Shown: one piece after another, positions 9,928 through 35,647 of the stretch
How the letters are laid out: every line of letters begins with the position of its first letter
How positions within the stretch are numbered: the first letter of the stretch is position 1
Source of the DNA: Burkholderiales bacterium
GTDB lineage: Bacteria; Pseudomonadota; Gammaproteobacteria; Burkholderiales; SG8-39
Length of the DNA stretch: 64,000 nt
Assembly (NCBI GenBank): GCA_049651845.1
Contig: JBASCW010000042.1
Coordinates: 37,235-101,234, forward strand
Direction: 5' to 3'
The notes under the pieces: model-generated
What the model was told of the DNA's origin: nothing
Database searches by the model: none
What the model saw: the letters and a program-made list of their open reading frames with translations, nothing else
Program-made: the position numbers and the translations under genes

Positions 9928-9960
9928 TTCCAGACTATCCACGCAACGCGAGCGACGGTC

Positions 9961-9976: not shown

Positions 9977-10014
9977 TACTCACTCCGCGGTTTGCCGAGT
10001 GCCAAGGCGTCGCG

Positions 10015-10048
10015 AAAAGGCCCGGAGCGAAAATGCCGCTGCCGGGCC
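10015..10048 (-). terminator. Rho-independent terminator after the collagen-like gene
   Basis: Minus strand GGCCCGGCAGCGG-CATTTT-CGCTCCGGGCC followed by TTTT. Confidence 0.5.
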
Positions 10049-10074
10049 CGGACCTGCTTGCTGGAACAAAATGC

Positions 10075-12275: not shown

Positions 12276-12839
12276 TTACTTCTTGATGCTCATTTCGTTG
12301 CCGATACCCGTCACGCCGTCCACTTTGCGGGTGATCGCGACGGCCTGGTCGATCTGCGCCTGGCTGTCGACGAAGCCGCTGAGCTGAACTTCGCCCTTGC
12401 GGGTGACGACGGCGATGTCGAAACTCTTGACGCCTGGATCGGCAAGCAATGCCGATTTCACCCTGGTGGTGATGATGCCGTCATCGACCTGGCTGCCCGC
12501 CGTGGTGTTCCCGGTTTTCAGGCTGACGTTGCTCTCGATGCCCTTGACGCCCTCGACGCCTGCCGTCGCCTCGAGTGCGCGGTCGATCTGCGCCTGGCTG
12601 TCGACGAAGCCGCTGAGTTGGACCACGCCCTTGCGCGTTTCGACTTTCAGATCGAAGCTCTTGATGTCAGCGTCGGCGAGCAGCGCCGATTTCACTTTCG
12701 TCGTGATCACGGTGTCGTCGATCTGCGTGCCTACCGTGGTGCTCGCGGCAGCCGACGGAGCCGGGTCCTGCCAGATACCGCAGCCTGCGGCAAGGACGCT
12801 GACCGCGCCCAGGATGAGGAGTTTGCGTTCGATGTACAT
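12276..12839 (-). CDS. BON-domain lipoprotein (OsmY-like, two BON domains)
   Basis: 187-aa ORF; lipobox LAAGC; two repeats of IDDxxITTKVKSALLAD...VxTRKGxVQLSGFVDSQAQID. Confidence 0.85.
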   Translation of the reverse strand: MYIERKLLILGAVSVLAAGCGIWQDPAPSAAASTTVGTQIDDTVITTKVKSALLADADIKSFDLKVETRKGVVQLSGFVDSQAQIDRALEATAGVEGVKGIESNVSLKTGNTTAGSQVDDGIITTRVKSALLADPGVKSFDIAVVTRKGEVQLSGFVDSQAQIDQAVAITRKVDGVTGIGNEMSIKK

Positions 12840-12902
12840 GAGGGTGGAATCCGGGGAAGAAGAAGGAGGAGGACGATCTTCGGCTCACTGCCGCGCACGG
12901 TC

Positions 12903-13023: not shown

Positions 13024-13719
13024 ATGCTGGAAAACAGTCTGCTGGCCGCGATGCCCCGCCAGGCGAGCCGGCGCATGCTCTCGGGGCTCGAGCCAGTCAC
13101 GCTGGCCTTCGGTGACGTGCTCTACGAGCCCGGACAAGCCATCCGGGATGTCTACTTTCCCGGCGCTTCCCTGGTGTCCTTGCTGACGCTGGCGGACGGG
13201 CATCTGGCGCTCGAAGTCGGGCTGATCGGCCGGGAAGGCATGGTCGGCATACCGCTGATCCTGGGACACAGCCTGTCGCCGGTGCGCGCGCTGGTCCAGG
13301 GCAGCGGGTCGGCGCTGCGCATGGCGGCGGCACCCTTCCGCAAGGAACTGCGGCGCAACCCGGCGCTGCAGCGAGAGCTTTACCGCTACACCTACACGTT
13401 GATGGCGCAGATCTCGCAGACCGCGGCCTGCAACCGCTTTCACGTGGTCGATCAGCGCCTCGCGCGCTGGCTGCTGATGACCCACGATCGCATGAAGTCG
13501 GACCGGTTCCATATGACGCACGAGTTCCTCGGACACATGCTGGGCGTACGTCGGGTCGGCGTCACCAAGGCGGCCCAAACGCTGCAGGCGCGCGACCTGA
13601 TCAGCTACAGCCGCGGCGACATCACGGTACTCGACCGCAAGGGTCTCGAGGCCGCTGCCTGCCAGTGCTATGAGGTCGTCAAGGACATGCACGACGGCAG
13701 GCAGGCTGGCAGCGCATAG
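13024..13719 (+). CDS. Crp/Fnr-family transcriptional regulator (paralog 1)
   Basis: 231-aa ORF; cNMP-binding-like beta-barrel then HTH MLGVRRVGVTKAAQTLQARDLISYSRG; paralogous to 15769..16536 and 34838..35647. Confidence 0.85.
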   Translation: MLENSLLAAMPRQASRRMLSGLEPVTLAFGDVLYEPGQAIRDVYFPGASLVSLLTLADGHLALEVGLIGREGMVGIPLILGHSLSPVRALVQGSGSALRMAAAPFRKELRRNPALQRELYRYTYTLMAQISQTAACNRFHVVDQRLARWLLMTHDRMKSDRFHMTHEFLGHMLGVRRVGVTKAAQTLQARDLISYSRGDITVLDRKGLEAAACQCYEVVKDMHDGRQAGSA

Positions 13720-13798
13720 AAAAAGGCCCGGAACGGGGTTGCCGTTTCGGGCCTAGTGTTGCAGGTGTTCGTCTAAGGGAGGAGAAGGGCGAACACCC
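13720..13798 (-). ncRNA. Candidate box-driven small RNA with CU-rich (anti-SD) loop and intrinsic terminator
   Basis: Box c, CATGAT -10, predicted +1 at 13798; GGTGTTCG/CGAACACC stem with loop CCCTTCTCCTCCCTTAGA; terminator GGCCCGAAACGG-CAAC-CCCGTTCCGGGCC plus TTTTT; no conserved ORF. Confidence 0.45.
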
Positions 13799-13831
13799 GT
13801 GAACATCATGTCCCGGCACACAGACTATTTC

Positions 13832-13847
13832 CGTGCGCTGGCGAACG
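13832..13847 (-). promoter_or_regulatory. Island box c (CGTTCGCCAGCGCACG toward sRNA candidate)
   Basis: 10/12 positions; lies in a 21-nt stretch identical to 34751-34771; CATGAT at +22..27. Confidence 0.5.
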
Positions 13848-15776: not shown

Positions 15777-16536
15777 CGGCGACCGGGATGCTCTGCCGGT
15801 GCCGCACGTCGGAAAGCAGGCGGCCCAGCTCCTTCTTCACCACGCCGTAGCACTCGCAGGCGAGCGTTTCCAGCCCGGAGCGCTCGAGCACCGAAATGTG
15901 GCCGCGCCGGTAGCGGATGTAGCCGGCCTGCTGCAGCTTGCCGGCCGCCTGCGTGATGCCTTCGCGGCGCACACCGAGCATGCTGGCCACCAGTTCCTGC
16001 GTCATCACCAGCTCGCGCGAGGGTATCCGGTCCAGCGTCAGCAGCAGCCAGCGGCACAGCTGCTGCTCTACCGAATGGTGGCGATTGCAGGCGGCGGTCT
16101 GGAACATCTGCGTGATCAGCGCCTGCGTGTAGCGCAACAGCAGGCTGCGCATCAGGCCGGCACGGCTGAATTCGCGCTTCAGCACGTTGCTCGCCAGCCG
16201 GTAGGCGTGGCCCGCGGTCTGCACGACCGCGGAGCTCGGCGTCGTGTCGCCGCCCATGAACAACGAAATTCCGACCACGCCTTCGTTACCCACGCCCGCA
16301 GTCTCCGCAGAAGCGCCGGTCTCCATGACGTAATGAAGCGACACGATGGAGGTGGTGGGGAAGTAGGCATGCTGCATTTGTCCGCCGGGCTCGTAGAGGA
16401 TCATCCCCAGTGGCATTGCAAACAGCTCCAGGTCGGGCGCCAGACGCTCGAACTCGGCGCCGGGCAGCGCGGCAAGCAGGTGATTCTGGTCCGGACTGTG
16501 AGGCGCGGCCACCGCGGGCTGATGGAAGCGCTTCAC
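15769..16536 (-). CDS. Crp/Fnr-family transcriptional regulator (paralog 2), last gene of HK-RR-Crp operon
   Basis: 255-aa ORF; GTG start shares one nt with the upstream stop (TAGTG); HTH MLGVRREGITQAAGKLQQAGYIRYRRG; close paralog of 34838..35647. Confidence 0.85.
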   Translation of the reverse strand: MKRFHQPAVAAPHSPDQNHLLAALPGAEFERLAPDLELFAMPLGMILYEPGGQMQHAYFPTTSIVSLHYVMETGASAETAGVGNEGVVGISLFMGGDTTPSSAVVQTAGHAYRLASNVLKREFSRAGLMRSLLLRYTQALITQMFQTAACNRHHSVEQQLCRWLLLTLDRIPSRELVMTQELVASMLGVRREGITQAAGKLQQAGYIRYRRGHISVLERSGLETLACECYGVVKKELGRLLSDVRHRQSIPVAVR

Positions 16537-17357
16537 TAGCGTTTCGCGCTGACTTCCACGCCGATGCCGCGGTAGCCGATGAAGCGGCTGGAGCGGTTGA
16601 ACATCGGCTCGCCGCTCACCCGGAACTGCTGCTGCGTTCCGTCGGGTTCGACGCGGCTGAAAAGGAAATCCAGGAACGGCTGCCGCGCCGCGATCGTCGC
16701 CTGCAGCTCCTCGCGCTGCGCCTCGTTCCAGCCCGTCATCAGGGCGCCGTTCGAATCGCCCGCGAGAGAGCCGACGCGCAGGCCGAGCATTTCCAGCACC
16801 GGGCCGGAAACCTTGGTGAAATTCCCTGCTTCGTCCTGCTCCCAGTACCAGTCGGAGGCGAGTTCGGTCAGGCTGCGGTAGCGCGCTTCGCTCTCGCGCA
16901 GTTCGGCGGTTCGTTCCAGAACCGTCTGCTCGAGTGCCTTGCTGTAGTTTTCGAGCTTCCGGTAGAGCAGCCGCACTTCGAGCATGTTGCGGATGCGCGT
17001 CCTGACCTCCACCAGGTCGAAAGGCTTGCTGATGAAGTCCTTCGCGCCGGCCTGCAGCGCGCGCAGCTTGTGGCCGGGTTGCGCGGTGAGAACCAGGACC
17101 GGCAGGTAGGCATCGGCGTCGTTGGTCTTGAGCGCTTCGATCACCTGGAATCCGTCCATGCCGGGCATCTGCAGGTCGAGCAGGATCAGGTCGTAGCAGT
17201 TCCGGCGGTGCAACACGCAGACTTCCAGCGGGTCTATGGTCGAGCTGACGCTGGTGTAGCCGGCCTCGCGCAGCATCTGCCCCAGCAGGCTGATGTTCAC
17301 TTCCTGGTCGTCGACGATCAGGATGCGGGCGTTCAGGATCTCGGATTCGGCAATCAT
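16536..17357 (-). CDS. Response regulator: receiver domain + coiled linker + PAS domain (no DNA-binding output)
   Basis: 273-aa ORF; ILIVDDQ...DLILLDLQMPGMDG...KPF receiver motifs, then SEARYRSLTELASDWYWEQDEAGNFT PAS-like; ATGA overlap with the HK stop. Confidence 0.85.
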   Translation of the reverse strand: MIAESEILNARILIVDDQEVNISLLGQMLREAGYTSVSSTIDPLEVCVLHRRNCYDLILLDLQMPGMDGFQVIEALKTNDADAYLPVLVLTAQPGHKLRALQAGAKDFISKPFDLVEVRTRIRNMLEVRLLYRKLENYSKALEQTVLERTAELRESEARYRSLTELASDWYWEQDEAGNFTKVSGPVLEMLGLRVGSLAGDSNGALMTGWNEAQREELQATIAARQPFLDFLFSRVEPDGTQQQFRVSGEPMFNRSSRFIGYRGIGVEVSAKR

Positions 17358-19030
17358 TGTGCTTGTGCCCCTGCCGCCGCGGCGCTTGATGCGGTTTTCG
17401 AGCCGCTGAGTGCTCTGTCCAGCGCGTTCATGAACTCGTCGACCTTGATCGGCTTGGTGAGATAGTCGAAGAATCCGGCCTCGAGCGCGCGTGCGATGTC
17501 GCGCGGGACCGCGTTGGCGCTGAGTGCGATGATCGGGATATGCATCGTGGCGGGGTCCGCGCGCAGGATTTTCATGGCTTCGATCCCGCTGATGCCGGGC
17601 AGGTTGATGTCCATCAGGATCACCTTCGGCTGGCAGGCGCGCGCAAACTCGATTCCGAGGCTGCCGTCCGCGGCGCTGAGCATGCGCAGGTCAGGCCGGC
17701 GTGCGACCAGCTGCTCGACCAGCTCCAGGTTGGCTGGATTGTCCTCGACGTAGAGCACGGTGCGCAGCGGCGTGCCGTCCGGCACCTGCGCTCGCTCTAC
17801 AGCCGCCCCGGCCGCTTGCAGGACCGCGAGCTGAGGCGCCGGCGCCAGGGCCAGCTCGAACCAGAACACGCTGCCTTCGCCAACCACGCTGTCGACGCCG
17901 ATCGCGCCGCCCATGAGACCCACCAGCCGCTTGCTCACCACCAGGCCGATGCCCGTGCCTTCCTCGGTGCTCGCTTCCTTGCCGAGGCGGTTGAAGGGCT
18001 GGAACAGCTGCGCCACCTGTTCCGGCGACAGGCCCGCGCCGGAGTCGCGGATGCCGATGCGGATCGTGCCCGGGGGCTTGTGGGCGCATTCCACGGCCAC
18101 CGCGCCGCCCGGCTTGTTGTACTTGATCGCGTTGAACAGCAGATTGATCAGCACCTGCTTGACCCGGGTGCGGTCCGCCTTGACGAAGTTGGGCGTGTCG
18201 AAGCGCGGAAACGTCATGCCGATGTCGCGCTTCTGCGCTTGCGGCTCGATCATCGCCCGGCACTCGAGCATGACCTCTGCCAGCGAGACCGGCTCGCTCG
18301 ACAGGGTCAGCTTGCCCGACTCGATCAGCGCCAGATCGAGGATCTCGTTGATCAGCTCCAGCAGGTACCAGCCGGCCTTGAGGATCTGGTCGAGGTTGCG
18401 CTTCTGCGAGAGCGTCGGCGCGGGCGTACCGGTCGCCATCAACTGGGCGAAGCCGAGGATCGCGTTCAGCGGCGTGCGCAGCTCATGGCTCATGCCGGAG
18501 AGGAAATCGGACTTCGCCCGGCTGGCCGTCTCGGCCGCCGCCATGGCCTCGTTCAGCTTGGACTCGACGCGTTTGCGCACCGAGTTGTCGCTGCCGATCA
18601 GCAGATAGCCGATGATCTTGCCGAATTCGTCGCGCAGACCCGTGATCGACACGATCGCAGGAAAGCGGCTGCCATCCTTGCAGACATAAGTCAACTCATA
18701 GGTGTCTGCGATGCCGCGCGATGCCTTGTAGGCGAGCGCCTCGAATCCCGGCGCGATCGGGGTGCCGAGCTCCAGGCTCAGGGCCTGGGCACGCGCCGCA
18801 ACTTCCAGCGGGTCGTGCATGTCGCTCGGGCTGATCCGGTCCACGACCTCGGCGGCGGCGTAGCCGAGCATGCGTTCGGCGCCGACGTTGAACAGCTGGA
18901 TGATGCCCTTCTCGTCGGTCGCGATGATCGAAAAATTGGCGCTGGTGAGGATCGCGTACTGCAGGGCGCCCGTCTTCAGCAGCGCCCGCTGGCGCCTCGC
19001 CTCTGTAGCGCCGATTTCCGGTGTGGCCAT
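17354..19030 (-). CDS. Hybrid sensor histidine kinase (PAS-HisKA-HATPase-REC)
   Basis: 558-aa ORF; H-box SHELRTPLNAILGF, N/G boxes (NAIKYNKPGG, DSGAGL, GTGIGL), C-terminal receiver VLYVEDNPANL...ILMDINLPGISG. Confidence 0.9.
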   Translation of the reverse strand: MATPEIGATEARRQRALLKTGALQYAILTSANFSIIATDEKGIIQLFNVGAERMLGYAAAEVVDRISPSDMHDPLEVAARAQALSLELGTPIAPGFEALAYKASRGIADTYELTYVCKDGSRFPAIVSITGLRDEFGKIIGYLLIGSDNSVRKRVESKLNEAMAAAETASRAKSDFLSGMSHELRTPLNAILGFAQLMATGTPAPTLSQKRNLDQILKAGWYLLELINEILDLALIESGKLTLSSEPVSLAEVMLECRAMIEPQAQKRDIGMTFPRFDTPNFVKADRTRVKQVLINLLFNAIKYNKPGGAVAVECAHKPPGTIRIGIRDSGAGLSPEQVAQLFQPFNRLGKEASTEEGTGIGLVVSKRLVGLMGGAIGVDSVVGEGSVFWFELALAPAPQLAVLQAAGAAVERAQVPDGTPLRTVLYVEDNPANLELVEQLVARRPDLRMLSAADGSLGIEFARACQPKVILMDINLPGISGIEAMKILRADPATMHIPIIALSANAVPRDIARALEAGFFDYLTKPIKVDEFMNALDRALSGSKTASSAAAAGAQAQ

Positions 19031-19057
19031 GAAGATTGCTGCCTTGCGAAGTCGAGC

Positions 19058-19081
19058 AAAAGCCGCGCCTCACGCGAGGCG
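19058..19081 (-). terminator. Hairpin + TTTT between SOD locus and HK operon (SOD terminator and/or 5' stem-loop of the HK mRNA)
   Basis: Minus strand GCCTCGC-GTGAG-GCGCGGC then TTTTG; starts at the +1 predicted from box i. Confidence 0.35.
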
Positions 19082-19115
19082 ACCTTGCACCATGGCGCTT
19101 TGCCTGGCCGGCGTC

Positions 19116-19131
19116 TGTGCGGCTGCGCACA
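19116..19131 (-). promoter_or_regulatory. Island box i (TGTGCGCAGCCGCACA toward HK-RR-Crp operon)
   Basis: 11/12 positions, 6-4-6 palindrome; GAC then CATGGT at +22..27. Confidence 0.55.
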
Positions 19132-19983: not shown

Positions 19984-20016
19984 GCCGCGATTGTCGTTTC
20001 GCCAGCCGGGCGTTTC

Positions 20017-20032
20017 TGTGCGTTGTCGAACA
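20017..20032. promoter_or_regulatory. Island box j (TGTGCGTTGTCGAACA), equidistant from two divergent ATGs
   Basis: 10/12 positions; 33 nt to ATG 19983 (-) and 33 nt to ATG 20066 (+); GACAAT and TAAATA at +22..27. Confidence 0.55.
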
Positions 20033-20366: not shown

Positions 20367-20477
20367 ATGGCCAAAGGTCAGCTCAGAAGCAACCGCGAGA
20401 AGAAGAAGCCCAAGCAGGCCAAGAAGCCCGTGATCCCGCCTTCGCCGTTCAGGCTGCCGGCGCCAAAAGCTCGATAG
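20367..20477 (+). CDS. Possible small basic protein (36 aa), low confidence
   Basis: MAKGQLRSNREKKKPKQAKKPVIPPSPFRLPAPKAR; not in the track; overlaps the 3' end of the convergent glucan synthase gene by 29 nt. Confidence 0.3.
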   Translation: MAKGQLRSNREKKKPKQAKKPVIPPSPFRLPAPKAR

Positions 20478-23400
20478 GCTGCCGGCGCAGCGTCACCTCG
20501 ACCTGGTGTTCGGCCCGGTCGTCGACGAGCGCTATCGTCGAGTCCGCCTGCAGGACGCCGTCCACGCTCACTGTCATTGCGGCGTCGCCGCCGGTGGCCT
20601 GGCGCAAGGCGATGCGGTACATGGTTTCCTTGTGGCGGTAGCGCAGTTCGAGCCCCTGCCAGTCGGCGGGCAAGCACGGTGCGAAATGCAGCTTGTCCGC
20701 GGCCAGCCTCAGACCCAACAGCGATTCAAGGATCAGCCTGTACATCCAGCCGGCCGAGCCGGTGTACCAGGTCCAGCCGCCGCGCCCGGTATGAGGCGGA
20801 ACCGCATAGACGTCGGCGGCGACGACATAGGGCTCCACTTTGTAGACGGCGATCCCCTCGGGCGTGTCGCCGTGGTGCAGGGGGTTGATCATGTCGAGCA
20901 GTTCCCAGGCCCGCACCGCATCGCCCTGCGCGGCAAATGCCATCGACGCCCAGATCGCCGCATGCGTGTACTGCCCGCCGTTCTCCCGCACGCCGGGCAC
21001 ATAGCCGCGGATGTAGCCTGGATCCAGCTCGGAGCGATCGAACGGCGGATCGAGCAGCTGCACGAGCGCGTGGTCGCGGCGCACCAGCCGCTGATCCAGC
21101 GCGTTCATCGCCAGCTTGGAGCGCTCGGGGGTACCCGCGCCGGACAGCACGGACCAGCTTTGCGCGATGGAATCGATCTGGCATTCGGCGTTGGCCGCGG
21201 ATCCCAGCGGCGTGCCGACATCGAAATAGGCGCGGCGATACCAGCCGCCGTCCCAGGCGTGCGCTTCGATGTTCCTGCGCAGGCGGACGGCTTCGCTCTC
21301 GCAGCGCTCGGCGAATGGTGCGTCGTTCTCGCCGCGCGCGAGCACGGCGAACTGCGTGAGCACCTGATACAGAAAGAAGCCGAGCCAGACGCTCTCGCCC
21401 CTGCCCTGCGCGCCCACCAGGTTCATGCCGTCGTTCCAGTCGCCCGAGCCCATCAGCGGCAGGCCGTGGAATCCCATGCGCAGGCCGTTCTCGATGGCCC
21501 GTACGCAATGCTGATACAGGCTCGCCGCTTGCAGCGAGCGCAGCGGCAGGTCGTAATACGAATCCTCGTCGGCATTCACGGGGCGACCGTCGAGAAACTG
21601 GATCTGCTCCTTCAGGACTGCGCTGTCCCCGGTGCAGGAAACGTAGCGGCAGGTCGCCAGCGGCAGCCACAGATAATCGTCGGAGCAACGCGTGCGCACG
21701 CCGCGCCCGGAAGGCGGGTGCCACCAGTGCTGGACATCGCCCTCGAGGAACTGGCGGGATGCGCACAGCAGCAAATGCTCGCGCACCAGCTGCGGAGACG
21801 CATGAACCAGGGCCATGACGTCCTGCAGCTGATCGCGGAATCCGAACGCGCCACCCGACTGGTAATGGCCGCTGCGCCCCCACAGGCGGGACGCCATCGT
21901 CTGGTAGAGCAGCCAGCCGTTGCAGAGCACGTCGAGCGACGGATCGGGCGTCTCGATCTGTACGACGCCTAGCGTGGTCTTCCAGTACTGCCGGACCGCT
22001 TCCAGCGCCACGCTCGCGGTGCTGGACTTGCGCAGGCGCTGCACCAGGCGGCTCGCGTCGTCGGTGCCGCGCCCGACGCCCAGGCGGAAGATGATCTCGC
22101 GCGACGATCCGTCGGCGAGGTCGAATGGGACCTGGATCGCGGCGCAGGGGTCCATGGCGGCGCCCACCCTGCCGGAAAGCCGTGCGCGCTCGAGGGCGGC
22201 CGGATTGCGCAACGTGCCATTGCGCCCGATGAACTCGGTGCGATCGCCGCTGAGGGTGCGCGTCACGTCGTCCACGTCGAAGAATGCAACCTGCTCCCCG
22301 AACTCCGGGTTGTAGGCGTTGCGCGCGAGCAGCGCGCCGCTGTTGGGATCGATCTCGGTGACCACGTGCATGCTCGATTTCGATCGCAATGCGCCCAATA
22401 CCCACTCGACATAGCCGGTTGCGGAGAGCCGGCGCGGCCGGCCCGAGCCGTTGCGCACCTTGAGGACCGCGAATTTGACCGGCGAATCGAGGTCCACGTA
22501 CACCGTCAGCTCGGTGGCGATGCCGCCCTCGCTGTGCTCGAAGACGCTGTAGCCGAAGCCGTGCCGGCTGACGTAGTTGCCCGTTCCGGGGCAGGGCAGC
22601 GCGGTCGGCGACCAGACCTGCCCGGTCTCTTCATCGCGCAGGTAATAGGCTTCGCCGCTGGCATCCCCGACCGAATCGTTGTGCCAGGGGCTGAGGCGGA
22701 ACTCGTGCGCGTTCTCATGCCAGGTGTAGGCCGCGCCGCTTTCGGAGATCACGCAGCCGAAATGCGGATTGGCCAGTACGTTGACCCAGGGTGCCGGGGT
22801 CGCCTGCGCAGTCGTCGTCGTGATCACGTATTCGCGCCCGTCGGGCGTGAAACCGCCCAGTCCGTTGGCGAGGGCCAGCTCGCGAGGCGGCACGGCGGCC
22901 TCGTCCGCAGCGGCGGCACCGCGCGCCGTTTCAGCTGCGCGCAGGCGGCTGGCGGCAAAGGGTGCCATGGCGGCTTCGACCTCGGGGCGCTGCTTGACCT
23001 GCTCCTTGAGGGTCCCCTGGCTGTCGGTGAACACGGCGCGGGCGACCGACTGCAACAGGATGCGGTCCTCGTTCGAGATCTGTTCGGCGGATCGCACGAA
23101 GATTCCGCCCGGCCGGTCGATGACGTGCGCTTCCACCCCGGCGGCGATCAGCCCCATGATCTGGTCGTGCAGCAGCTGGCGGTAGCCGCCCCGCTCCTCG
23201 TTCCAGATCACCAGGTCCACGGCCAGTCCCTTCAGACGCCAGTAGGCGTGGGCCTGCACCAGCTGGCGTACCAGCTCGATGTTGGCGGGGTCCCTCAACT
23301 GCACCAGCACGATGGGCAGGTCCCCCGAGATCGCGTAGCCCCACAAGCCGGACTGCCCGCGGCGGTTCTTGGCGATGACGCTCGCTTCGGCGCGCAACGA

Positions 23401-26400
23401 GGCATTGGCGTAGATGATCGAGCTGGCCAGGCGCCCGTAGAGCTGCGCTTCGGCCTCGGTGACGTTGATCTGTCGTAGCGCGACCTGGCTGTGCGTCCAT
23501 GCCATTTCGAATGCGCGGTCGGCGAGGCGCCGATCCTGGTATTTCTCCACCAGCTGGAGGCAGCCCGCGCGGCTGTCGCCGACGCCGATGACCAGGTCCA
23601 GCGTGGCCGTCTGCGCCGGCTCGAGGGTGACGCGCTGCCGGATGGCGACGATCGGGTCAAGCACCGAGCCCTCGCTGCCCGAGAGCGGAGCGGGATCGCG
23701 CAGCGCCTGCGGCGCGGCGACGCTGTTGCCGCGGCCGACGAAGCGAGCGCGGTCCGTCTCGTAGGAAACGGCCTCCACTTCTGCGCCATGCACCGCCATC
23801 AGGTGCAGCATCCACGGTGTCGTCTCGCCGCGCGAGCGCGGCCGGCGCGTGCACAGGATCGCCTGGCGCGCGGCAATGATCTCGGTCTGCACGAACAGGC
23901 TGCTGAACGCCGGATGGAGCGCGTCGGCGGAGGGGGAGGCGAGCACCACCTCCGCATAGCTGGTCACTTCGATCGTGCGGCGCGATCGCGAACGGTTGGT
24001 GACGCGTACCCGGCGCAGCTCGATATCATCCTCCGGCGACACCACGATCTCGGTATGCGTGTCGAAGTTCGCGTCGTGGCGGCGGAATTCCACGCGCTGC
24101 TCGGTGAAGATCGCCTCGTAGGATTCGGTACGCTTGAGCGCAGGCTGAAGCGCGCAAGACCAGACCTGGCCGCTCGCGGTGTCGCGCAGGTAGCAGAACG
24201 AGCCCCAGTTGTCGGCGGTGCTGTCCTCGTGCCAGCGCGTGACGGCGAGGTCCTTCCAGCGGCTGTAGCCGCCGCCGGCGTTCGTGATCATCACGTTGTA
24301 GCGGCCATTGGAGAGCAGTTGCACGCCCGGGATCCTCGTATCCGGCGTGCTGAAGACGCGCATCGGCATCTCGGGAATCTCCGCGACAGCGCGAAAATCG
24401 ATCCATTCGGGAATCGTCGAGTACGACGCCGTGGCCCTCGGCACCCGCTCCTGCAGCAGCAGCAGGGTCGCCTGGAAGAGCGGATCCGAGACGAAGCGCC
24501 GCTGCATCGGCCGGTCGAGCAGGACGTGGGACAGGGCGAGGAAGCTCATGCCCTGGTGGTGGGCCATGAACGAACGCACGACCGCGCTGGTCTCCGCGCG
24601 GCGCAGGCGCGCGGGCGTGTAGTCGATCGCCTCGTAGAAGCCGAATTTGCCTAGCAGGCCGTCGGCCGCGAGCCGCTTCAGGTTGGCGCACGCCGCCTCG
24701 GGCGCGACCATCAGTGCGAGCGCCGTGGCATACGGCGCGATCACCAGGTCCTCGCTCAGGCCGCGCTTGAGGCCGAGGCCCGGAACGCCGAAAGCACGGT
24801 ACTGGTAATTGAGCGCTGCATCGACCGTGTTGTACCCGCACTCCGACATGCCCCACGGCACGCCGCGTTGCGCGCCATAGTCGATCTGGCGCCGGACCGC
24901 TGCGCGGCAGCTCTCATCGATCAGCGTGTTCTCATAGCTGGGCATCACCAGCAGCGGCATCAGGTACTCGAACATCGAGCCGCTCCAGGACAGCAGCGTC
25001 GCTCCGCTGCCCGCGTTGGTGAGCAGCCGTCCGAGCGCAAACCAGCTCTGCTGCGGCAGCTGCCCCTGGGCGATGGCGACGAAACTGGTCAGGCGCGCTT
25101 CCGATGCGAGCAGGTCGTAGTAGCTGGCATCGCGCCTGCGCTCGGTCGCGTGGTGTCCGCGCCTGCGCTCGGTGACGTTGTGCCCGATCATCAGCAGATG
25201 CCGCACGTCGTCGTACAGGAAGTTGTAATCCATGCGTGCCATTTCGCCCGCCTGCAGGGCGAGTTGCGCGATTTCCTCCATGCGTGCGCGCGCGGCGGAA
25301 ACGCCTCGCGCAGCCAGCTCGCGCAGCGTGGGTATGCCGTGCTCGCCCGGCATCGCGGAGGGCGGCGCCAGCAGGCGCAGTTCGCCCAGGGCATCCCGGC
25401 ACTGGCGATCGAGCGCGCGTACCCAGGCGGCGTGCTCTGAATCCGATTTCTCTCCCAGCTCTGCCAGCACCAGTGCGGCGTCCTTCGCCAGCGCATCGAG
25501 CATCCGTCGCGAGGCAGCGAGCGTGGCTGGGCGGTCCGCCAGCGCCGATTCGAGCTGATGCCGGAAACTGCGCAGCGCATTCGTGGACGCCGCTGGCGCG
25601 CAAGCGTGTAGCGCGTGAAGGGTGTCTTCCAGGCCTTCCCGCCAGCGCGCCGCGAGGATGGGCTGATCGGCCAGCGCGGCGATGCCCGGCCGCAGCGTCA
25701 GCAGGTGGCCCGCCAGGTTGCCGCTGTCGACCGTGGAAACGTACATCGGCAGCAGCGGCAGCAGCGAGGCGGTATCGTACCAGTTGTAGAAGTGGCCGCG
25801 GTAGCGTTCCAGCTTGTGCATTGTCGCGAACGCATTGCGCGTACGCTCGATGAGCGTGCCTGCGGACACATAGCCGAAATCGTACGCCGAGAGGTTCGCG
25901 AGCAAAGACAGCCCCATATTCGTGGGGGAGGTGCGGCGGGCGAGCGCCGTGGCTGGACTCTCCTGGTAGTTGTCCGGCGGCAGCCAGTGGTCTTCCGGCC
26001 CTACGAAGGTCTCGAAGAAAGCCCAGGTCTTGCGGGAAACCAGGCGCAGGAACGAGATCTGCTCCGGGGAGAGTACCGCCTGCGGTCGCTCAAGCGGCCG
26101 GCCCAGCCACCAAGCGAGCAGCGGAGACGCGAGCCACAGGAGCAGGATCGGAACGGCCACCGCCAACGCTCCGGGGCGCACCTGCAAGAGGTACACCGCC
26201 GTGCTGATCGCCACGATCGGCGCGATCCACATCTGGCGTAGGGAATCCGTAAAGCGGCCGCCGGGATCGAGCTCGCTCGAGGCCGTCCACTCGAGTAGGT
26301 GCCGGCGCGTGATGAGGACGCGCACCGAGGTGCGCAGGATCGCGTCCAGGCTGGTGCTGGCCTCAAAGGGCAGGCAGGCGAACGTGAACACCGTCTGCGC

Positions 26401-29130
26401 GAGGCGCGTTCCCGCAGCGCGCATGGCCCCGACCAGATGCTGGCGCAGCGAGGCATCGTCCGGCTTGCGAAACAGCTCCACCATCCAGGCGCACGCCGCG
26501 GGAATCAGCAGCACCGCCAGCACGGCCGCGGTCCAGAGCCAGGCGGGCGACAGGAGCGCCCAGCCAAGCAGCAGCAGCAGGGTGAGGGCCGGGGCGACCA
26601 GGCTGCGGCGCAGGTTGTCGAGGATCTTCCACTGCGACAGGCCGGAGAGAGGATTCTTCTGCGTGCCGCCATCGCCCGCGGCAACGCGCCGGCGCAGCCA
26701 GCCGAGCAGCTGCCAGTCGCCGCGCATCCAGCGGTGCCGCCGGGCCACATCGGCGCTGTAGCGGGCCGGATACTGCTCGTAGAGTTGCACGTCGCTCGCC
26801 AGGCCGGAGCGCGCATAGCATCCTTCCAGCAGATCGTGGCTGAGGATGCGGTTGTCCGGGAAACGACCCTTCAGCGCCCGCTCGAATGCTTCGACGTCGT
26901 AGATGCCCTTGCCGATGAACGAGCCTTCGCCGAACAGATCCTGGTAGACATCGGAAACCATGCGTGTGTACGGATCGATGCCGGCTTCCTCGCCGTGCAG
27001 CTGGGCATAGCGCGTGCGGTTGCTGTCCGCCACGCTCACCGCCACGCGCGGCTGCAGTATTCCGTAGCCTTGCGTCACGCGTCCGCTCGCCTCGTCGTAC
27101 CGCGCGCGATTGAGCGGATGCGCCATCGTGGCCGCGAGCAGGCGCGCCGAGTCGCGCGGCAGCTGCGTGTCGCTGTCCAGCGTGATCACGTATCGCACGC
27201 CGGACAGGACGGCGGTGCGGCCGACCACGCGCGAGAATGCGCCAGGCGCGCCGCCGCGCAGCAGCGCATTCAGATCGCCCAGCTTGCCGCGCTTGCGCTC
27301 GCGGCCCATCCAGACGCCCTCGCGCGGGTTCCAGAGGCGCGGACGATGGAGCAGGAAGAAGACATCGCCGTCCCCCGCGCCTGCGTCGCTGCGGTATTTG
27401 TCATTCAACGCCGCGATGCGCTGCGCCGCCAACTGCAGCAGCGGCTCGTCCTGGGGCAGCGTTTCAGCGTGCGCATCGGCAAAATCCGTGAGCAGGCAGA
27501 ACCGAAGGTGCTCGTCGCGGTTGCCGAGGAAGCGGACCTCGAGCGACTCGACCAGATCCTCGACGTTCTGCGTGCTGTGGATGAGCGTCGGCACCACGAC
27601 CAGCGTCTGCGCGTCCGGCGCTATGCCCTTGGCGAAATCCAAGCGCGGCAGCACCTTCGGCGCCACCAGCAGCGTTGCCAGCCAGTTCACCAGGGCCACT
27701 GCGAGTTGGCTGGTGGCGAGCAACGCCAGCATCCCGCAAAGCACCAGGAACCAGCCCCGCGCCCCGCCGGCATGGGCCTGCGCAAGCAAGGCCCCGGTGA
27801 AGGCCGCCGTGATCAGCAGGATCGGGCCGAGATAGAGGTAGCGGCGGCGGACGCGCCGCAAGCGAAGGGAAAGGGGAACCCGCATCCGGGTCGCCTCTTC
27901 CAGCTGCCGCAGCCCTGTGTCGAAGAGGTAGAAACCGACATGTCTTGCCCGCTCGTCGCCGTCGCTGCGCGCCGCGGCTTCCTGCGCGAGCTGAACGCAG
28001 CGGCGCGCCGCCTGTTCCTCGGCGAGTCCGCTGCGCCTGGCGATCTTCTCCAGCACGTGGCGATAGTGGTCGCGGGTGGCGAAGTCCATGCGGCCGTACA
28101 CGCCGCCGGGGTCCTCGCGCAGAATGCTCTCGACGACGCTCATCGACTCGACGAAGGCATGCCAGTCGGTCGCGGCCAGCAGGCGCAGGCTGCCGATACT
28201 GTTGCTGATCGACACCTGGTCGGCCGCCTGCTGCTGGTTCTCCGCCTGCACCAGCTGCTCGATGGAAAGGCCCAGTTCCGAGAGCCGCTGCTCGATCCAG
28301 TTGAGCGGCATGGCCAGCGCCGCGCTCTGTCCTTGCAAGCGGCGCGCAAGTTCCGCCACGAATGGACCGCTCATGGGCGGGTTGGAACGCGCCATGTCCG
28401 CGACCACCAGGATCAGGCTCTTGGGGTCGTTCTGGGTGGTCTCCATCATCTCGCCCGCCCAGAAATCGGCCAGGTCCCGGCCTCTGCGGTGAGCGATGAT
28501 GCGGGTTGCGACGCGGCGCAGGTTCTCGATCAGCGCCAGGCGCAGCATGATCGGCACGGCCCACAGTTCGCCGAGGGTCAGATGGGTGACGGTCTGGTAG
28601 GCGCTGATGAAGCGGCCGAAGCTGTCGGGATCCATCTGCCCGTCGCCATGGGAAATGGTCTCCAGGGCGATGTCATAGACGCGCGGCAGTCCGGCCGACG
28701 GCCCATTGTCCAGGCGCGGCAGCTCCCGGCTGTAATCCCTGGGCAGGTGCCGCCTCGCGGTGCGGATCTGCTCCTCGATCAGGTGGAAGTTGTCCAGCAG
28801 CCATTCGCCGGCGGGCGTGCTTGCGCGTCCGTCCTTGATCGCCGCTGTGAGCAGGTCGCAGGCTTCGAGCAGCACGCCCTGGTTTTCCGCAAGGCGCGCG
28901 AGCAGCAGGTCGCGGGTGCGCCTTGCCCCCAGCGCGTGCGAGGCCGCCAGCGCCTTGCCGTACTGCTCCATCTGGTCGGCGCTGAACAGCTCGGAGCGCA
29001 GCGGCGGCTCTTCGACGGGGTGATCCGCGGTCCAGCCGCCGCGCCGGAACAGCGTCAGTGACTGGAGCAGGATTCGCGCAAGGAAGTTGCCGCTGCTTTT
29101 CAGTGGTCCTGCCTCATGCGATGCCGGCAA
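20449..29130 (-). CDS. ndvB: Cyclic beta-1,2-glucan synthase (NdvB/ChvB/Cgs type: GT84 glycosyltransferase + TM region + GH94 phosphorylase)
   Basis: 2893-aa ORF, the size and architecture of this family; N-terminal PLRSELFSADQMEQYGKALAASH, DSDTQLPRD and RHRWMRGDWQLL GT motifs, TM helices, long C-terminal GH94-like region; TTG start, no SD. Confidence 0.9.
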   Translation of the reverse strand: MPASHEAGPLKSSGNFLARILLQSLTLFRRGGWTADHPVEEPPLRSELFSADQMEQYGKALAASHALGARRTRDLLLARLAENQGVLLEACDLLTAAIKDGRASTPAGEWLLDNFHLIEEQIRTARRHLPRDYSRELPRLDNGPSAGLPRVYDIALETISHGDGQMDPDSFGRFISAYQTVTHLTLGELWAVPIMLRLALIENLRRVATRIIAHRRGRDLADFWAGEMMETTQNDPKSLILVVADMARSNPPMSGPFVAELARRLQGQSAALAMPLNWIEQRLSELGLSIEQLVQAENQQQAADQVSISNSIGSLRLLAATDWHAFVESMSVVESILREDPGGVYGRMDFATRDHYRHVLEKIARRSGLAEEQAARRCVQLAQEAAARSDGDERARHVGFYLFDTGLRQLEEATRMRVPLSLRLRRVRRRYLYLGPILLITAAFTGALLAQAHAGGARGWFLVLCGMLALLATSQLAVALVNWLATLLVAPKVLPRLDFAKGIAPDAQTLVVVPTLIHSTQNVEDLVESLEVRFLGNRDEHLRFCLLTDFADAHAETLPQDEPLLQLAAQRIAALNDKYRSDAGAGDGDVFFLLHRPRLWNPREGVWMGRERKRGKLGDLNALLRGGAPGAFSRVVGRTAVLSGVRYVITLDSDTQLPRDSARLLAATMAHPLNRARYDEASGRVTQGYGILQPRVAVSVADSNRTRYAQLHGEEAGIDPYTRMVSDVYQDLFGEGSFIGKGIYDVEAFERALKGRFPDNRILSHDLLEGCYARSGLASDVQLYEQYPARYSADVARRHRWMRGDWQLLGWLRRRVAAGDGGTQKNPLSGLSQWKILDNLRRSLVAPALTLLLLLGWALLSPAWLWTAAVLAVLLIPAACAWMVELFRKPDDASLRQHLVGAMRAAGTRLAQTVFTFACLPFEASTSLDAILRTSVRVLITRRHLLEWTASSELDPGGRFTDSLRQMWIAPIVAISTAVYLLQVRPGALAVAVPILLLWLASPLLAWWLGRPLERPQAVLSPEQISFLRLVSRKTWAFFETFVGPEDHWLPPDNYQESPATALARRTSPTNMGLSLLANLSAYDFGYVSAGTLIERTRNAFATMHKLERYRGHFYNWYDTASLLPLLPMYVSTVDSGNLAGHLLTLRPGIAALADQPILAARWREGLEDTLHALHACAPAASTNALRSFRHQLESALADRPATLAASRRMLDALAKDAALVLAELGEKSDSEHAAWVRALDRQCRDALGELRLLAPPSAMPGEHGIPTLRELAARGVSAARARMEEIAQLALQAGEMARMDYNFLYDDVRHLLMIGHNVTERRRGHHATERRRDASYYDLLASEARLTSFVAIAQGQLPQQSWFALGRLLTNAGSGATLLSWSGSMFEYLMPLLVMPSYENTLIDESCRAAVRRQIDYGAQRGVPWGMSECGYNTVDAALNYQYRAFGVPGLGLKRGLSEDLVIAPYATALALMVAPEAACANLKRLAADGLLGKFGFYEAIDYTPARLRRAETSAVVRSFMAHHQGMSFLALSHVLLDRPMQRRFVSDPLFQATLLLLQERVPRATASYSTIPEWIDFRAVAEIPEMPMRVFSTPDTRIPGVQLLSNGRYNVMITNAGGGYSRWKDLAVTRWHEDSTADNWGSFCYLRDTASGQVWSCALQPALKRTESYEAIFTEQRVEFRRHDANFDTHTEIVVSPEDDIELRRVRVTNRSRSRRTIEVTSYAEVVLASPSADALHPAFSSLFVQTEIIAARQAILCTRRPRSRGETTPWMLHLMAVHGAEVEAVSYETDRARFVGRGNSVAAPQALRDPAPLSGSEGSVLDPIVAIRQRVTLEPAQTATLDLVIGVGDSRAGCLQLVEKYQDRRLADRAFEMAWTHSQVALRQINVTEAEAQLYGRLASSIIYANASLRAEASVIAKNRRGQSGLWGYAISGDLPIVLVQLRDPANIELVRQLVQAHAYWRLKGLAVDLVIWNEERGGYRQLLHDQIMGLIAAGVEAHVIDRPGGIFVRSAEQISNEDRILLQSVARAVFTDSQGTLKEQVKQRPEVEAAMAPFAASRLRAAETARGAAAADEAAVPPRELALANGLGGFTPDGREYVITTTTAQATPAPWVNVLANPHFGCVISESGAAYTWHENAHEFRLSPWHNDSVGDASGEAYYLRDEETGQVWSPTALPCPGTGNYVSRHGFGYSVFEHSEGGIATELTVYVDLDSPVKFAVLKVRNGSGRPRRLSATGYVEWVLGALRSKSSMHVVTEIDPNSGALLARNAYNPEFGEQVAFFDVDDVTRTLSGDRTEFIGRNGTLRNPAALERARLSGRVGAAMDPCAAIQVPFDLADGSSREIIFRLGVGRGTDDASRLVQRLRKSSTASVALEAVRQYWKTTLGVVQIETPDPSLDVLCNGWLLYQTMASRLWGRSGHYQSGGAFGFRDQLQDVMALVHASPQLVREHLLLCASRQFLEGDVQHWWHPPSGRGVRTRCSDDYLWLPLATCRYVSCTGDSAVLKEQIQFLDGRPVNADEDSYYDLPLRSLQAASLYQHCVRAIENGLRMGFHGLPLMGSGDWNDGMNLVGAQGRGESVWLGFFLYQVLTQFAVLARGENDAPFAERCESEAVRLRRNIEAHAWDGGWYRRAYFDVGTPLGSAANAECQIDSIAQSWSVLSGAGTPERSKLAMNALDQRLVRRDHALVQLLDPPFDRSELDPGYIRGYVPGVRENGGQYTHAAIWASMAFAAQGDAVRAWELLDMINPLHHGDTPEGIAVYKVEPYVVAADVYAVPPHTGRGGWTWYTGSAGWMYRLILESLLGLRLAADKLHFAPCLPADWQGLELRYRHKETMYRIALRQATGGDAAMTVSVDGVLQADSTIALVDDRAEHQVEVTLRRQPIELLAPAA

Positions 29131-29231
29131 AAATGGAAGAGGCCCGGAACGGGATCGCCGTCGCCGAGCCTCGGTGCGTCAGGTGTCCACCAGTAGGAGC
29201 GCCCGTCAGGGGGAGACGAGCCAGAACACCT
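29131..29231 (-). promoter_or_regulatory. Leader of the glucan synthase gene: sRNA-like 5' element with C-rich loops and terminator-like hairpin
   Basis: Predicted +1 at 29231 from box d; 5' AGGTGTTC and 3' CCCGTTCCGGGCCT shared with the 13720-13798 RNA; hairpin then TCTTCCATTTTT running into the TTG start. Confidence 0.4.
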
Positions 29232-29264
29232 ACCTAAATGATGCGTCGCGCCTGCGGAGCTGTC

Positions 29265-29280
29265 TGTACGCTAGCGCACA
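29265..29280 (-). promoter_or_regulatory. Island box d (TGTGCGCTAGCGTACA toward glucan synthase leader)
   Basis: 12/12 positions; GAC then CATCAT at +22..27; 6 nt after the upstream gene's stop codon. Confidence 0.6.
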
Positions 29281-29286
29281 GAAGCG

Positions 29287-30402
29287 CTAGATGGCAACGA
29301 GTGCGCCGTTTTCAATCCTGACCCGGCTGCCGACGCTGAATGCGGGCTGTGCGGGGTAGGAAACCGTTTGCGAGCCGCCGTTCTCCAGGCGCACCACCAA
29401 GTCGAAGTGCTTGGTGGATTTCATCTTTTTCTCGATTTCATTGCCGGCCCAGGCACCGCCCGCGGCGCCGGCGATCTGGGCCACGGTGGTGCCCGTGCCA
29501 TGGCCGACCTGGCTGCCGAGCAGCGCGCCGACCACGCCGCCGCCGATCATGCCGATATAGCTGCCGTCGCCCTTGACCTCGACCACGTTGATCGCCTCGA
29601 CCACGCCGCAATTGGGACAGATCTGGCGCGCGGCGGGCGCCGGTGCCGCCGCCTGGCGGCCAGTCGTGCGCTGCCGTGCGGATGAGCTGTCGACCAGCGG
29701 CTTGCCAAGGACCTTGCTGTGCTCCTGCTGGCCGATGCGCAGGTTCCCCGTGACGACCGCATTGGTTGCGATCCTGTCGCGATTCCTGATGGTGTACGCA
29801 CCCTCGTAGGCGCCGGCCCTGACTTCCTCCAGGTTGATCTTGCCGCGGACGCCGTTGATCCTGACGCTGGCGTTGCCGCTTGGGCTGCCCTCGAGAGCGA
29901 AAACGAGTTCCGAGCCCGGCGTGAGGCTGCGCGGCGGATCCACGTTGAAGAGGTTGATTTCCGGGACGCTGTTCGCGGCCGCCGAACCGCCCGGCCAGCG
30001 GAAGCCGGAGCCCTTCACCAGCGATTCGTCGAGAACGCTGCTGGCCACCTGATTGCCCCGGCGCAGATTGGCCGTGGCGGTGCTGTCCTCGGTGATCTGG
30101 TCGCGCCGGGTGATGGTGTAGATGCCTTCGTAGACGCCGGCTTCGATTTCTTCCAGGATCAGGCTCCCGGTCGCTCCGCCGATGCGCACGGTCGCGGTAC
30201 CAGCGGGGCTGCCGTAAAGCGTGAACACGAGCTCGCTGCCGGCGACCGGCTTCGCGGTGGGTACGACATCGAAGCCATCGATTCTGGGAGCCGCGTTCTG
30301 CGACGCGGACTGCTGCGCCAGCACGGTGTTCGAAGGGAGCGCCAGTGGCAGGAACGCTGCCAGTGCGAGGAGGGTTGCGCCGAGTCCGTGGTTTAGGTTC
30401 AT
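29287..30402 (-). CDS. Secreted protein: two tandem ~90-aa beta-rich repeats + CxxC/glycine-zipper 2TM module
   Basis: 371-aa ORF; signal peptide; repeats aa 39-127 and 147-236 (GSELVFxLxGSPxGxAxVRIxG...EEhxAGxYEGxYTI); C-terminus CPNCGVV...GGGVVGALLGSQVG...GNEIEKK. Confidence 0.75.
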   Translation of the reverse strand: MNLNHGLGATLLALAAFLPLALPSNTVLAQQSASQNAAPRIDGFDVVPTAKPVAGSELVFTLYGSPAGTATVRIGGATGSLILEEIEAGVYEGIYTITRRDQITEDSTATANLRRGNQVASSVLDESLVKGSGFRWPGGSAAANSVPEINLFNVDPPRSLTPGSELVFALEGSPSGNASVRINGVRGKINLEEVRAGAYEGAYTIRNRDRIATNAVVTGNLRIGQQEHSKVLGKPLVDSSSARQRTTGRQAAAPAPAARQICPNCGVVEAINVVEVKGDGSYIGMIGGGVVGALLGSQVGHGTGTTVAQIAGAAGGAWAGNEIEKKMKSTKHFDLVVRLENGGSQTVSYPAQPAFSVGSRVRIENGALVAI

Positions 30403-34837: not shown

Positions 34838-35647
34838 TTGTCACGGCTGAATATCGGTTCCGCACATCGCCTGAAAGGTGAGTTTCAGACTTTGCCTGCT
34901 CCCCATACTCCGCAGCAGAACCACCTCCTCGCCGCTCTGCCACCGGGCGATCTGGAGCGCCTGTCGCCCCATCTCGAGCTGGTGCCGATGCCGCTCGGCG
35001 AAGCCCTCTACGAATCCGGCGGGCGCTTGCAGCACGTCTACTTCCCGACCACCTCCATCGTGTCGCTGCTCTACGTGATGGAGGACGGCGCCTCGGCCGA
35101 GATCGCGGTGGTGGGCAACGAAGGCATCCTCGGTATCTCGCTGTTCATGGGCGGCGAAACCACGCCGAGCCGGGCCGTGGTGCAGAGCGCGGGCTACGGC
35201 TACCGGATGAAGGCGCAGGTCCTGAAGCAGGAATTCAACCGCGCCGGGCCGGTGATGCACCTGCTGCTGCGCTATACCCAGGCGCTGATCACGCAGATGG
35301 CGCAAACCGCCGTATGTAACCGCCACCACTCGGTGGAGCAGCAGCTGTGCCGCTGGCTGCTGTTAAGCCTGGACCGCCTGACCACCGACGAGCTGAGCAT
35401 GACCCAGGAGCTGATAGCCAACATGCTCGGCGTGCGGCGCGAAGGCGTCACCGAAGCCGCCGGCAAGCTGCAGCGCGCCGGATTGATCCGCTATAGCCGC
35501 GGCCGCATCACGGTGCTCGACCGTCCGGGACTGGAAAGGGAAGTCTGCGAGTGCTACGCGGTGGTCAAGAAGGAATTCGACCGGTTGCTTTCCGAGATTC
35601 CCGGCGGCAGCCCTTTCCAGATGGTCGGACACTCGCGCGCGAGCTAG
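34838..35647 (+). CDS. Crp/Fnr-family transcriptional regulator (paralog 3); start codon uncertain
   Basis: Close paralog of 15769..16536. The track start 34754 would bury boxes g and h in the CDS. TTG 34838 has a GGGAGG SD but overlaps the TAGAAT -10; TTG at 34892 (MPAPHTPQQNHLL) is an alternative. Confidence 0.8.
   Translation: MSRLNIGSAHRLKGEFQTLPAPHTPQQNHLLAALPPGDLERLSPHLELVPMPLGEALYESGGRLQHVYFPTTSIVSLLYVMEDGASAEIAVVGNEGILGISLFMGGETTPSRAVVQSAGYGYRMKAQVLKQEFNRAGPVMHLLLRYTQALITQMAQTAVCNRHHSVEQQLCRWLLLSLDRLTTDELSMTQELIANMLGVRREGVTEAAGKLQRAGLIRYSRGRITVLDRPGLEREVCECYAVVKKEFDRLLSEIPGGSPFQMVGHSRAS

Follow-up and report, generated by a model that had tools for sequence, protein, structure and literature searches.

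How can a gene be transcribed when a terminator-like hairpin stands between its promoter and its first codon? The question is raised by ndvB (cgs), the cyclic beta-1,2-glucan synthase gene in a 64,000-nucleotide (nt) stretch of a Burkholderiales contig (JBASCW010000042.1), hereafter the window; coordinates are positions in this window, and the leader cassette and ndvB both lie on its minus strand. The original prediction held that the ndvB leader is a paralog of a small RNA (sRNA) encoded elsewhere in the window, that it ends in a hairpin running into a TTG start codon lacking a Shine-Dalgarno (SD) sequence, and that transcription of the gene therefore apparently has to read through a terminator-like structure, making the element an attenuator, a riboregulator or an sRNA released from the 5' end of the mRNA.

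Judged by covariance-model score and promoter architecture, the leader is a true member of a widespread sRNA family that is absent from Rfam. The reading that we favor, with a confidence slightly better than even, is that the locus is a dual-output unit, in which an activator-dependent promoter yields a mostly terminated sRNA and, by read-through, a minority of ndvB mRNA with a weak start codon.

Membership of the ndvB leader in an sRNA family

The cassette follows a glycine-zipper gene (29287-30402, minus strand; Pfam Rick_17kDa_Anti), whose stop codon (TAG, 29289-29287) is separated by the 6-nt gap CGCTTC from a Crp/Fnr-type palindromic box, TGTGCGCTAGCGTACA ("box d," 29265-29280, minus strand). 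The extended 18-mer form of this box occupies 29263-29280 and carries one mismatch. A -10-like hexamer, CATCAT (29238-29243, minus strand), lies at +22 to +27 after the 16-mer, and its position relative to the box is constant in about 40 family members, where the consensus is GATGAT or CATGAT. Family spacing places the predicted +1, an A at 29231 (minus strand), 31 nt after the 18-mer box.

From this position, the leader RNA would begin with AGGUGUUC, which pairs with GGACACCU as the outer helix of a predicted stem-loop (29181-29231, minus strand). The minimum-free-energy fold contains an inner hairpin, CUCGUC-UCCCCCU-GACGGG, whose loop, UCCCCCU, occupies 29214-29208; another C-rich stretch, GCUCCUAC, lies at 29200-29193. 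Downstream are a 34-nt terminator hairpin, GAGGCUCGGCGACGG-CGAUC-CCGUUCCGGGCCUC (29139-29172, minus strand; 14-bp stem, predicted -22.4 kcal/mol), and an interrupted U tract, UUCCAUUUUUG (29128-29138, minus strand), the final three bases of which are the in-frame TTG (29130-29128). Folded as a whole from 29231, the leader forms a branched stem-loop followed by the 34-nt hairpin (-45.5 kcal/mol, z = -2.7). The sequence features originally described (the 6-nt gap, box, CATCAT, +1, hairpin and tail) are all correct on the minus strand.

The relative of this leader within the window is a free-standing, short-type sRNA at 13716-13799 (minus strand; the 13.7k RNA), with a box at 13832-13847, a -10 element at 13805-13810 and the loop CUUCUCCUCCCUUAG. 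As had been claimed, the 3' arm of the leader terminator is identical to that of the 13.7k RNA: exact copies of CCCGTTCCGGGCC occur at 29141-29153 and 13725-13737 and nowhere else. Along the promoter, 5' helix, linker and terminator, the two loci share a mean column identity of 75%. A covariance model (R2) derived from 24 metagenome members, all of the short type and without any window sequence, assigns 80.1 bits to the 13.7k RNA (13716-13799, minus strand) and 52.4 bits (E about 8e-10) to the leader (29132-29232, minus strand), which, together with the common promoter architecture and terminator, bears out the proposed paralogy.

A terminator-pattern scan of metagenomes returned more than 120 matches, about 40 of them distinct and sharing one architecture: the box TATGTGCGCnnGCGCACAGA; a 31-nt spacer with GATGAT or CATGAT; GGGUGUU and AACACC flanking a C-rich loop; a short linker; GGCCCGGnACGGCnnnCCCGUUCCGGGCC; and a U run. 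Every member is preceded by the box, and the spacing from box to +1 is constant over the distinct members. The ndvB leader has this promoter layout (box TGTGCGCnnGCGCACAGA, 31 nt to the +1, and a -10 of the form (G/C)ATNAT), its hairpin matches the family terminator ACGGCnnnCCCGTTCCGGGCC exactly, and the family 5' hairpin is present as a long variant. Across the family, the outer helix covaries, with double changes in 6 of 19 pairs. The long subtype, defined by an inner branch and a terminator extended by GAGGCC/GGCCUC, comprises the window leader and copies at L003, L099, L131A and L131B (L-numbers denote the compared loci, which are genome-derived ndvB loci and metagenome contigs). The tail after the window hairpin is UUCCAUUUUU, as opposed to an uninterrupted U5-8 in most members.

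Searches of Rfam with the window, both RNA loci and eight related loci, at gathering thresholds and at E<=10, found nothing relevant. The best match, seen with the 13.7k RNA, was ar14 (RF02344) at 27.9 bits, where gathering requires 58.8, and the leader did not match RF02344 at E<=10. With both RNAs as queries, a distant-mode search of PLSDB plasmids gave no match. In their loops, which bear CCUCCUCCC-like anti-SD motifs, the family members are similar to the cuckoo RNAs/alpha-r14 (RF02344; NfeR1) and to the Betaproteobacteria toxic sRNA (RF02278). Cuckoo RNAs contain two to four adjacent hairpins, each with the motif (PMC4615179). Unlike these, the window family has one motif hairpin and a conserved, motif-less terminator and scores far below gathering, so that a cuckoo/alpha-r14 identity fails both the hairpin definition and the Rfam threshold. 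Identity with the Betaproteobacteria toxic sRNA was likewise rejected, the leader giving no match to RF02278 and the 13.7k RNA giving 12.9 bits against a gathering threshold of 50.

Within the window, a 31-bit covariance match at 10010-10098 (minus strand) was rejected as a family member, being only a look-alike terminator, GGCCCGGCAGCGGCAUUUUCGCUCCGGGCCUUUUCG, after the gene at 10075-10986. Tandem sRNA cassettes occur in L098, L123, L151, L168 and L197 (for example, L123 430-648), where the U tract of the upstream copy leads directly into the next copy's TATGTGCGC box. In the second copy, the GGGUGU 5' end is often duplicated, and the loop is often CU-rich instead of CCUCC.

A single candidate promoter upstream of ndvB

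In both window copies, the leader and the 13.7k locus, the center of the box is 41.5 nt from the predicted +1. At class II Crp/Fnr promoters, too, the activator site is centered near -41.5 and overlaps the -35 region; by this geometry and the regulator genes nearby, the leader promoter fits the class II Crp/Fnr-dependent type, with activator binding as the predicted consequence. As at such promoters, the site is a 16-bp palindrome, and Crp/Fnr-family genes with boxes of their own are adjacent. Its half-site arrangement, TGTGCGC-N2-GCGCACA, matches neither of the known consensus sequences (TGTGA-N6-TCACA for CRP and TTGAT-N4-ATCAA for FNR). Three Crp/Fnr-family genes lie in the window, at 13024-13719 (plus strand), about 15832-16488 (minus strand) and 34916-35647 (plus strand), the one on the minus strand being a paralog, and they match no named NCBIfam subfamily. 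A literature search on the box sequence and on ndvB leaders or sRNAs found nothing relevant.

The placement of the +1 is supported by the window's own protein genes: in six open reading frames (ORFs), exactly 31 nt separate an 18-mer box from the ATG (13024, plus; 30402, minus; 33437, minus; 9927, minus; 19983, minus; and 20066, plus). The ATG at 13024 belongs to a regulator gene and that at 30402 to the glycine-zipper gene. With the ATG at the predicted +1, several mRNAs of this regulon are apparently leaderless.

The box occurs nine times in the window on both strands, compared with 0.64 expected matches. Many further copies fall between 9.9 and 35 kb, and neighboring transcription units each own one. 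The only box upstream of ndvB is that of the leader, and the gene downstream of ndvB has its own (20015-20032). A scan of 28800-29600 detected no sigma-70-like consensus promoter. Because the leader's box stands alone upstream of ndvB, transcription must pass the hairpin, and the claim of obligatory read-through holds to the extent that no other promoter of either the box or the sigma-70-like type is recognizable for this gene.

The start codon of ndvB

The synthase gene extends over 20449-29103 (minus strand), encoding 2,884 amino acids when counted from its probable CTG start. Its product contains the Pfam GH94 supersandwich and catalytic domains, a glucoamylase-like domain and a GT2 domain and matches the NdvB structure 8rf0 in the PDB with E = 0. 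Look-ups by exact protein sequence found no record of this synthase or of the glycine-zipper protein. As originally described, the TTG at 29130 is the only in-frame ATG, GTG or TTG upstream of the conserved PLRSELFS and has no SD; that it is the start codon is probably wrong, as indicated by the start position in relatives and by nucleotide composition.

In about 32 of 47 relatives, the core xEEPPLRSELFS is preceded, at a distance of exactly 29 (or 28) codons, by a start codon. This codon is mostly TTG, with ATG in five, and in L005, L013, L018, L028 and L035 an in-frame stop directly upstream fixes the start at this position. The corresponding codon in the window, aligned with the TTG or ATG of relatives, is CTG (29101-29103, minus strand), 8 nt after an SD-like GAGG (29112-29115, minus strand), and GAGG or AAGG is kept in L002, L003, L004 and L082. 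In the four closest genomes, conservation begins with GAGGCnGGACGA-TTG-AAA-ATC-AGC, to which GAGGCAGGACCA-CTG-AAA-AGC-AGC corresponds in the window. The G+C content at third codon positions (GC3) is 4/9 in the nine codons that begin with TTG 29130 and precede the CTG, differing significantly from the gene-wide value of 87% (binomial, P = 0.003), and only 0.14% of nine-codon stretches in ndvB are so low. The start of ndvB is thus most likely CTG 29103, 27 bases downstream of TTG 29130, and the "SD-less TTG" is most likely an artefact of ORF extension.

Translation from TTG 29130, beginning inside the U tract without an SD, would have the advantage of using the sole canonical start codon in frame before the conserved core, and in L131, too, a TTG occupies the corresponding place in frame. 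We nevertheless consider it improbable, given the composition of the intervening codons and the fixed starts of five relatives. Furthermore, this TTG, 38 codons before the core, consists simply of the UU that ends the terminator tail and a following G, its counterpart in L003 is out of frame, it sits 8 nt beyond a 34-nt hairpin, and conservation in the alignment starts at GAGGCnGGACGATTG rather than at TTG 29130.

A weak TTG start at a fixed position is kept across most of the ndvB clade (L001-L044), with ATG in a few members, a pattern suggestive of selection to keep synthase translation low. The window also contains a 5-codon upstream ORF, AUG AGG CAG GAC CAC UGA (29100-29117, minus strand), whose stop codon overlaps the CTG (CUGA) and whose ATG is missing in the compared relatives. 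This overlap could serve as a termination-reinitiation device that offsets the change from TTG to CTG.

Occurrence of the cassette in relatives

A model of the sRNA family, R1, was used to search 83 sources: 80 genome-derived ndvB loci, two contigs from metagenomes, and the window itself. The element precedes ndvB in 2 of the 83, the window and L003, and in a further locus, L131, from the metagenome scan. At L003 (ndvB 85% identity), the box, promoter, long-type RNA, hairpin and a U7 tail are followed after 20 nt by TTG, with a divergent Crp-like gene upstream. At L131 (copy B; ndvB 77% identity), the same series is followed after 27 nt by TTG, with two upstream genes on the opposite strand; neither L003 nor L131B has a co-directional upstream gene. 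A second, stand-alone long-type copy, L131A, lies 850 nt away. In L002 and L082 (ndvB 84% and 81% identity), the box and promoter are kept, with a 5' untranslated region (UTR) of roughly 42 nt and no RNA body, and L001/L081 (88%/86%) and L004 (84%) have neither box nor RNA. The ndvB tree groups the window with L001 and L003 with L004, apart from L002, and this grouping and the patchy presence of the cassette indicate that its association with ndvB is evolutionarily labile. The original prediction had named absence from relatives as grounds for its refutation; the element is present in L003 and L131, but ndvB orthologues as a group do not conserve it.

The metagenome contig L099 is collinear with window positions 9630-31691 and jumps from 20477 to 29135 (L099 10479-10495), such that ndvB is absent save its last roughly 28 nt. 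It keeps the glycine-zipper gene and a long-type RNA with a perfect CCUCCUCCC. The body of the short, 13.7k-type RNA is not present in L099, where its terminator alone is left (L099 3936-4004). The existence of stand-alone long-type copies, in L131A and L099, argues for a function of the RNA itself.

These distributions also bear on a different explanation, that the adjacency is incidental: the leader would be an autonomous sRNA gene, serving also as the terminator of the glycine-zipper gene, and ndvB would be transcribed from an unrecognized promoter, or be barely expressed and in the process of being lost. The collinear loss of ndvB from L099 with retention of the glycine-zipper gene and sRNA, the stand-alone copy in L131A, and the sister lineages that have ndvB without the RNA all fit this view, as do the mutation of the window start codon from TTG to CTG and an ndvB branch that exceeds the branch of its sister L001 by a factor of 1.6. 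Opposing it are an ndvB ORF intact over 2,884 codons with its GC3 of 87%, a branch length inside the range of relatives, and the fusion of cassette to gene with 20 to 27 nt between tail and start in all three lineages (100%, 85% and 77% protein identity). Besides the lack of a sigma-70-like promoter in the scan, only about 12 nt separate the terminator tail from the SD. On balance, incidental adjacency appears rather unlikely. Decay of the window ndvB into a pseudogene is not supported, the ORF being intact and its branch (0.117) falling among those of relatives (0.072 to 0.187).

The box itself also occurs upstream of ndvB elsewhere, including Pseudomonas, Massilia and Oxalobacteraceae loci. 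It lies 96 to 169 nt upstream of the gene in seven Pseudomonas loci (L050, L055, L064, L066, L067, L073 and L080), in two of Massilia (L068 and L074) and in L058; it is perfect in L055 (TGTGCGCCAGCGCACA), and a Crp-like gene is adjacent in L064 and L073. The -10 region in these loci looks different (CCACAC). Crp/Fnr-family homologues adjoin ndvB at nine other loci, Pseudomonas contigs included.

In L082, ndvB is split after 397 amino acids (1583-2776/2801-5776), reflecting a frameshift, a stop or an assembly error, and a degenerate remnant of a long-type sRNA (760-827; 30 bits) lies 750 nt upstream, at the same position as L131A. A MAFFT alignment hinted at homology between the promoter-UTR region of L002 and L082 and the terminator region, which was judged too weak to interpret.

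Termination, read-through and attenuation

Predicted free energies of the long-type terminator hairpins range from -22 to -26 kcal/mol. A simple terminator scan of 28800-29600 did not flag the window hairpin, owing to its bulged stem and interrupted U tract. Of the first eight tail bases, five are U, and two of these are contiguous with the stem. From what is generally known of intrinsic terminators, the window tail UUCCAUUUUU, with its two stem-proximal U residues, is probably leakier than a canonical tail. The U tracts of the window and L099 are both weakened, and those of L003 and L131B are uninterrupted U7. The U7 tails of these two loci and the stand-alone copies in L131A and L099 suggest that termination and RNA release have been selected. 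With ndvB intact in three lineages that have the terminated-leader layout, some read-through must suffice for its expression.

Read-through might instead be conditional, as in the attenuator or riboregulator originally proposed, and be switched by a signal such as osmolarity, a protein such as Hfq or a sibling sRNA; alternatively, the C-rich loops might mask the ndvB SD in cis. The hairpin is obligatorily in the path of transcription, C-rich, anti-SD-like loops occur close to the GAGG, and the weakened U tracts of the window and L099 relative to the U7 of L003 and L131B could mean that the strength of termination is tuned. However, truncated and constrained folding with the 3' arm withheld produced no antiterminator pairing, and hence no mutually exclusive structure, in any of the five long-type copies. 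When the folds were extended to include the ndvB SD, in the window, L003 and L131, it did not pair with the C-rich loops, and only a weak local hairpin, UUUGCC/GGCAGG, appeared. The ndvB leader has no Rfam riboswitch or leader-family match, no aptamer match and no leader peptide, and the same RNA is found in L099 and L131A, where there is nothing to attenuate. In view of these folds and the missing peptide and aptamer, a classical attenuator or riboswitch is unsupported, and conditional control of this kind seems improbable to us.

A candidate dual-output unit

In the dual-output reading, a portable cassette, of which the leader is one copy, comprises a Crp/Fnr box, a promoter, an sRNA with C-rich loops and an intrinsic terminator. 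Transcription would be driven from about 29231 by an activator of the Crp/Fnr family bound at -41.5, and the majority of transcripts would end at the hairpin and U tail (about 29139-29129), releasing an sRNA of roughly 100 nt, a long-type sibling of the 13.7k RNA whose C-rich loops may act in trans. The remaining transcripts would read through to form the ndvB mRNA, with translation starting about 27 nt past the tail at a weak, position-conserved codon (CTG in the window and TTG in relatives) behind the GAGG. The terminator would serve as a fixed or factor-modulated valve, keeping expression of the 8.7-kb synthase gene low and tying both outputs to one signal.

Several points weigh against this reading. 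The arrangement is patchy, occurring neither in the closest ndvB relative, L001/L081, nor in L002, L004 and L082. CTG is an unusual, near-cognate start codon. Compared with the CCUCCUCCC found in L099 and in the short type, the leader has weaker C-rich motifs (UCCCCCU and CUCCUAC), and this degeneracy makes trans activity of the window copy uncertain. No antiterminator pairing offers itself as a means of setting read-through. The canonical U7 tails of L003 and L131B should terminate efficiently, which raises the question of how enough ndvB mRNA would arise, and the host of the window is uncultured.

Comparison with known systems

The layout, with a shared predicted transcription start site and the 3' end of the short RNA before the ORF, is compatible with that of a 5' UTR-derived sRNA. 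Such sRNAs arise by premature intrinsic termination, as does RhlS from the rhlI leader of Pseudomonas aeruginosa (PMC6786874), and 5' UTR RNAs of Escherichia coli have been mapped by 3'-end sequencing (PMC7815308). As in these cases, one promoter would produce both a short terminated RNA, which may act in trans, and a read-through mRNA. Unlike them, the ndvB leader is a paralog of a free-standing, multicopy family with its own promoter box, and its RNA type also occurs without a downstream gene.

Read-through of an sRNA terminator is exemplified in Pseudomonas by PrrF1-PrrF2/PrrH. It also takes place at the terminators of the Hfq-type sRNA genes sgrS and ryhB (SgrS and RyhB; PMC4509938; reviewed in PMC6582626). 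The ndvB cassette resembles these systems in that an incompletely efficient sRNA terminator would allow read-through into downstream sequence; it differs in that the read-through product would be the only evident mRNA of an 8.7-kb enzyme gene and not a by-product or a longer sRNA.

The surrounding regulon

The TGTGCGCnnGCGCACAGA boxes of the window lie at 9959, 11102, 12901, 12973, 13830, 15510/15555, 19114, 20015, 29263, 30434, 30573, 31477, 33469, 34751 and 34795. They make up a dense island (9900-35700) that contains the three Crp/Fnr-family genes along with BON-domain, glycine-zipper, MlaC-like and SOD-like genes, and the island looks like one stress regulon. Within it, the BON-domain gene (12276-12839) has a predicted 5' UTR at 12840-12869 (minus strand) with the sequence CCUCCUUCUUCUUCCCCGGAUUCCACCCUC, which is C/U-rich and anti-SD-like and contains no SD. 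At 19050-19083 (minus strand), 31 nt after a box with one mismatch (19114-19131), the sequence UCGCCUCGCGUGAGGCGCGGCUUUUGCUC consists of a small hairpin and then a U run, and it could be a short RNA or an attenuator ahead of the gene at 17354-19030.

A broader and frankly speculative scheme, to which we assign a low likelihood, is that of a stress regulon of soil Betaproteobacteria, and partly of Pseudomonas, in which a Crp/Fnr-like activator would induce largely leaderless protein genes together with multicopy anti-SD sRNAs that damp SD-dependent translation. The cassette would then be a portable promoter-plus-valve, and a trans-acting factor (Hfq or sibling sRNAs) would set ndvB read-through. 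If true, a single transcript start would decide between a regulator RNA and the cyclic-glucan synthase.

Significance

What is new at this locus is that the leader of ndvB is a paralog of a free-standing, multicopy sRNA family not in Rfam, situated behind a Crp/Fnr-type box. The analysis also uncovered the family itself, which has no Rfam entry and abounds in soil metagenomes, and a putative Crp/Fnr-type regulon with several apparently leaderless genes. Cultured genera that have the box before ndvB (Pseudomonas and Massilia) provide tractable hosts. Cyclic beta-1,2-glucans matter in osmoadaptation and host interactions, and little is known of how the level of the 300-kDa synthase is controlled. 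The suggested design places a gene behind a complete sRNA gene, so that one activator-dependent promoter would supply both a regulatory RNA and, through a leaky terminator, a little mRNA for a costly synthase, which itself has a weak start codon.

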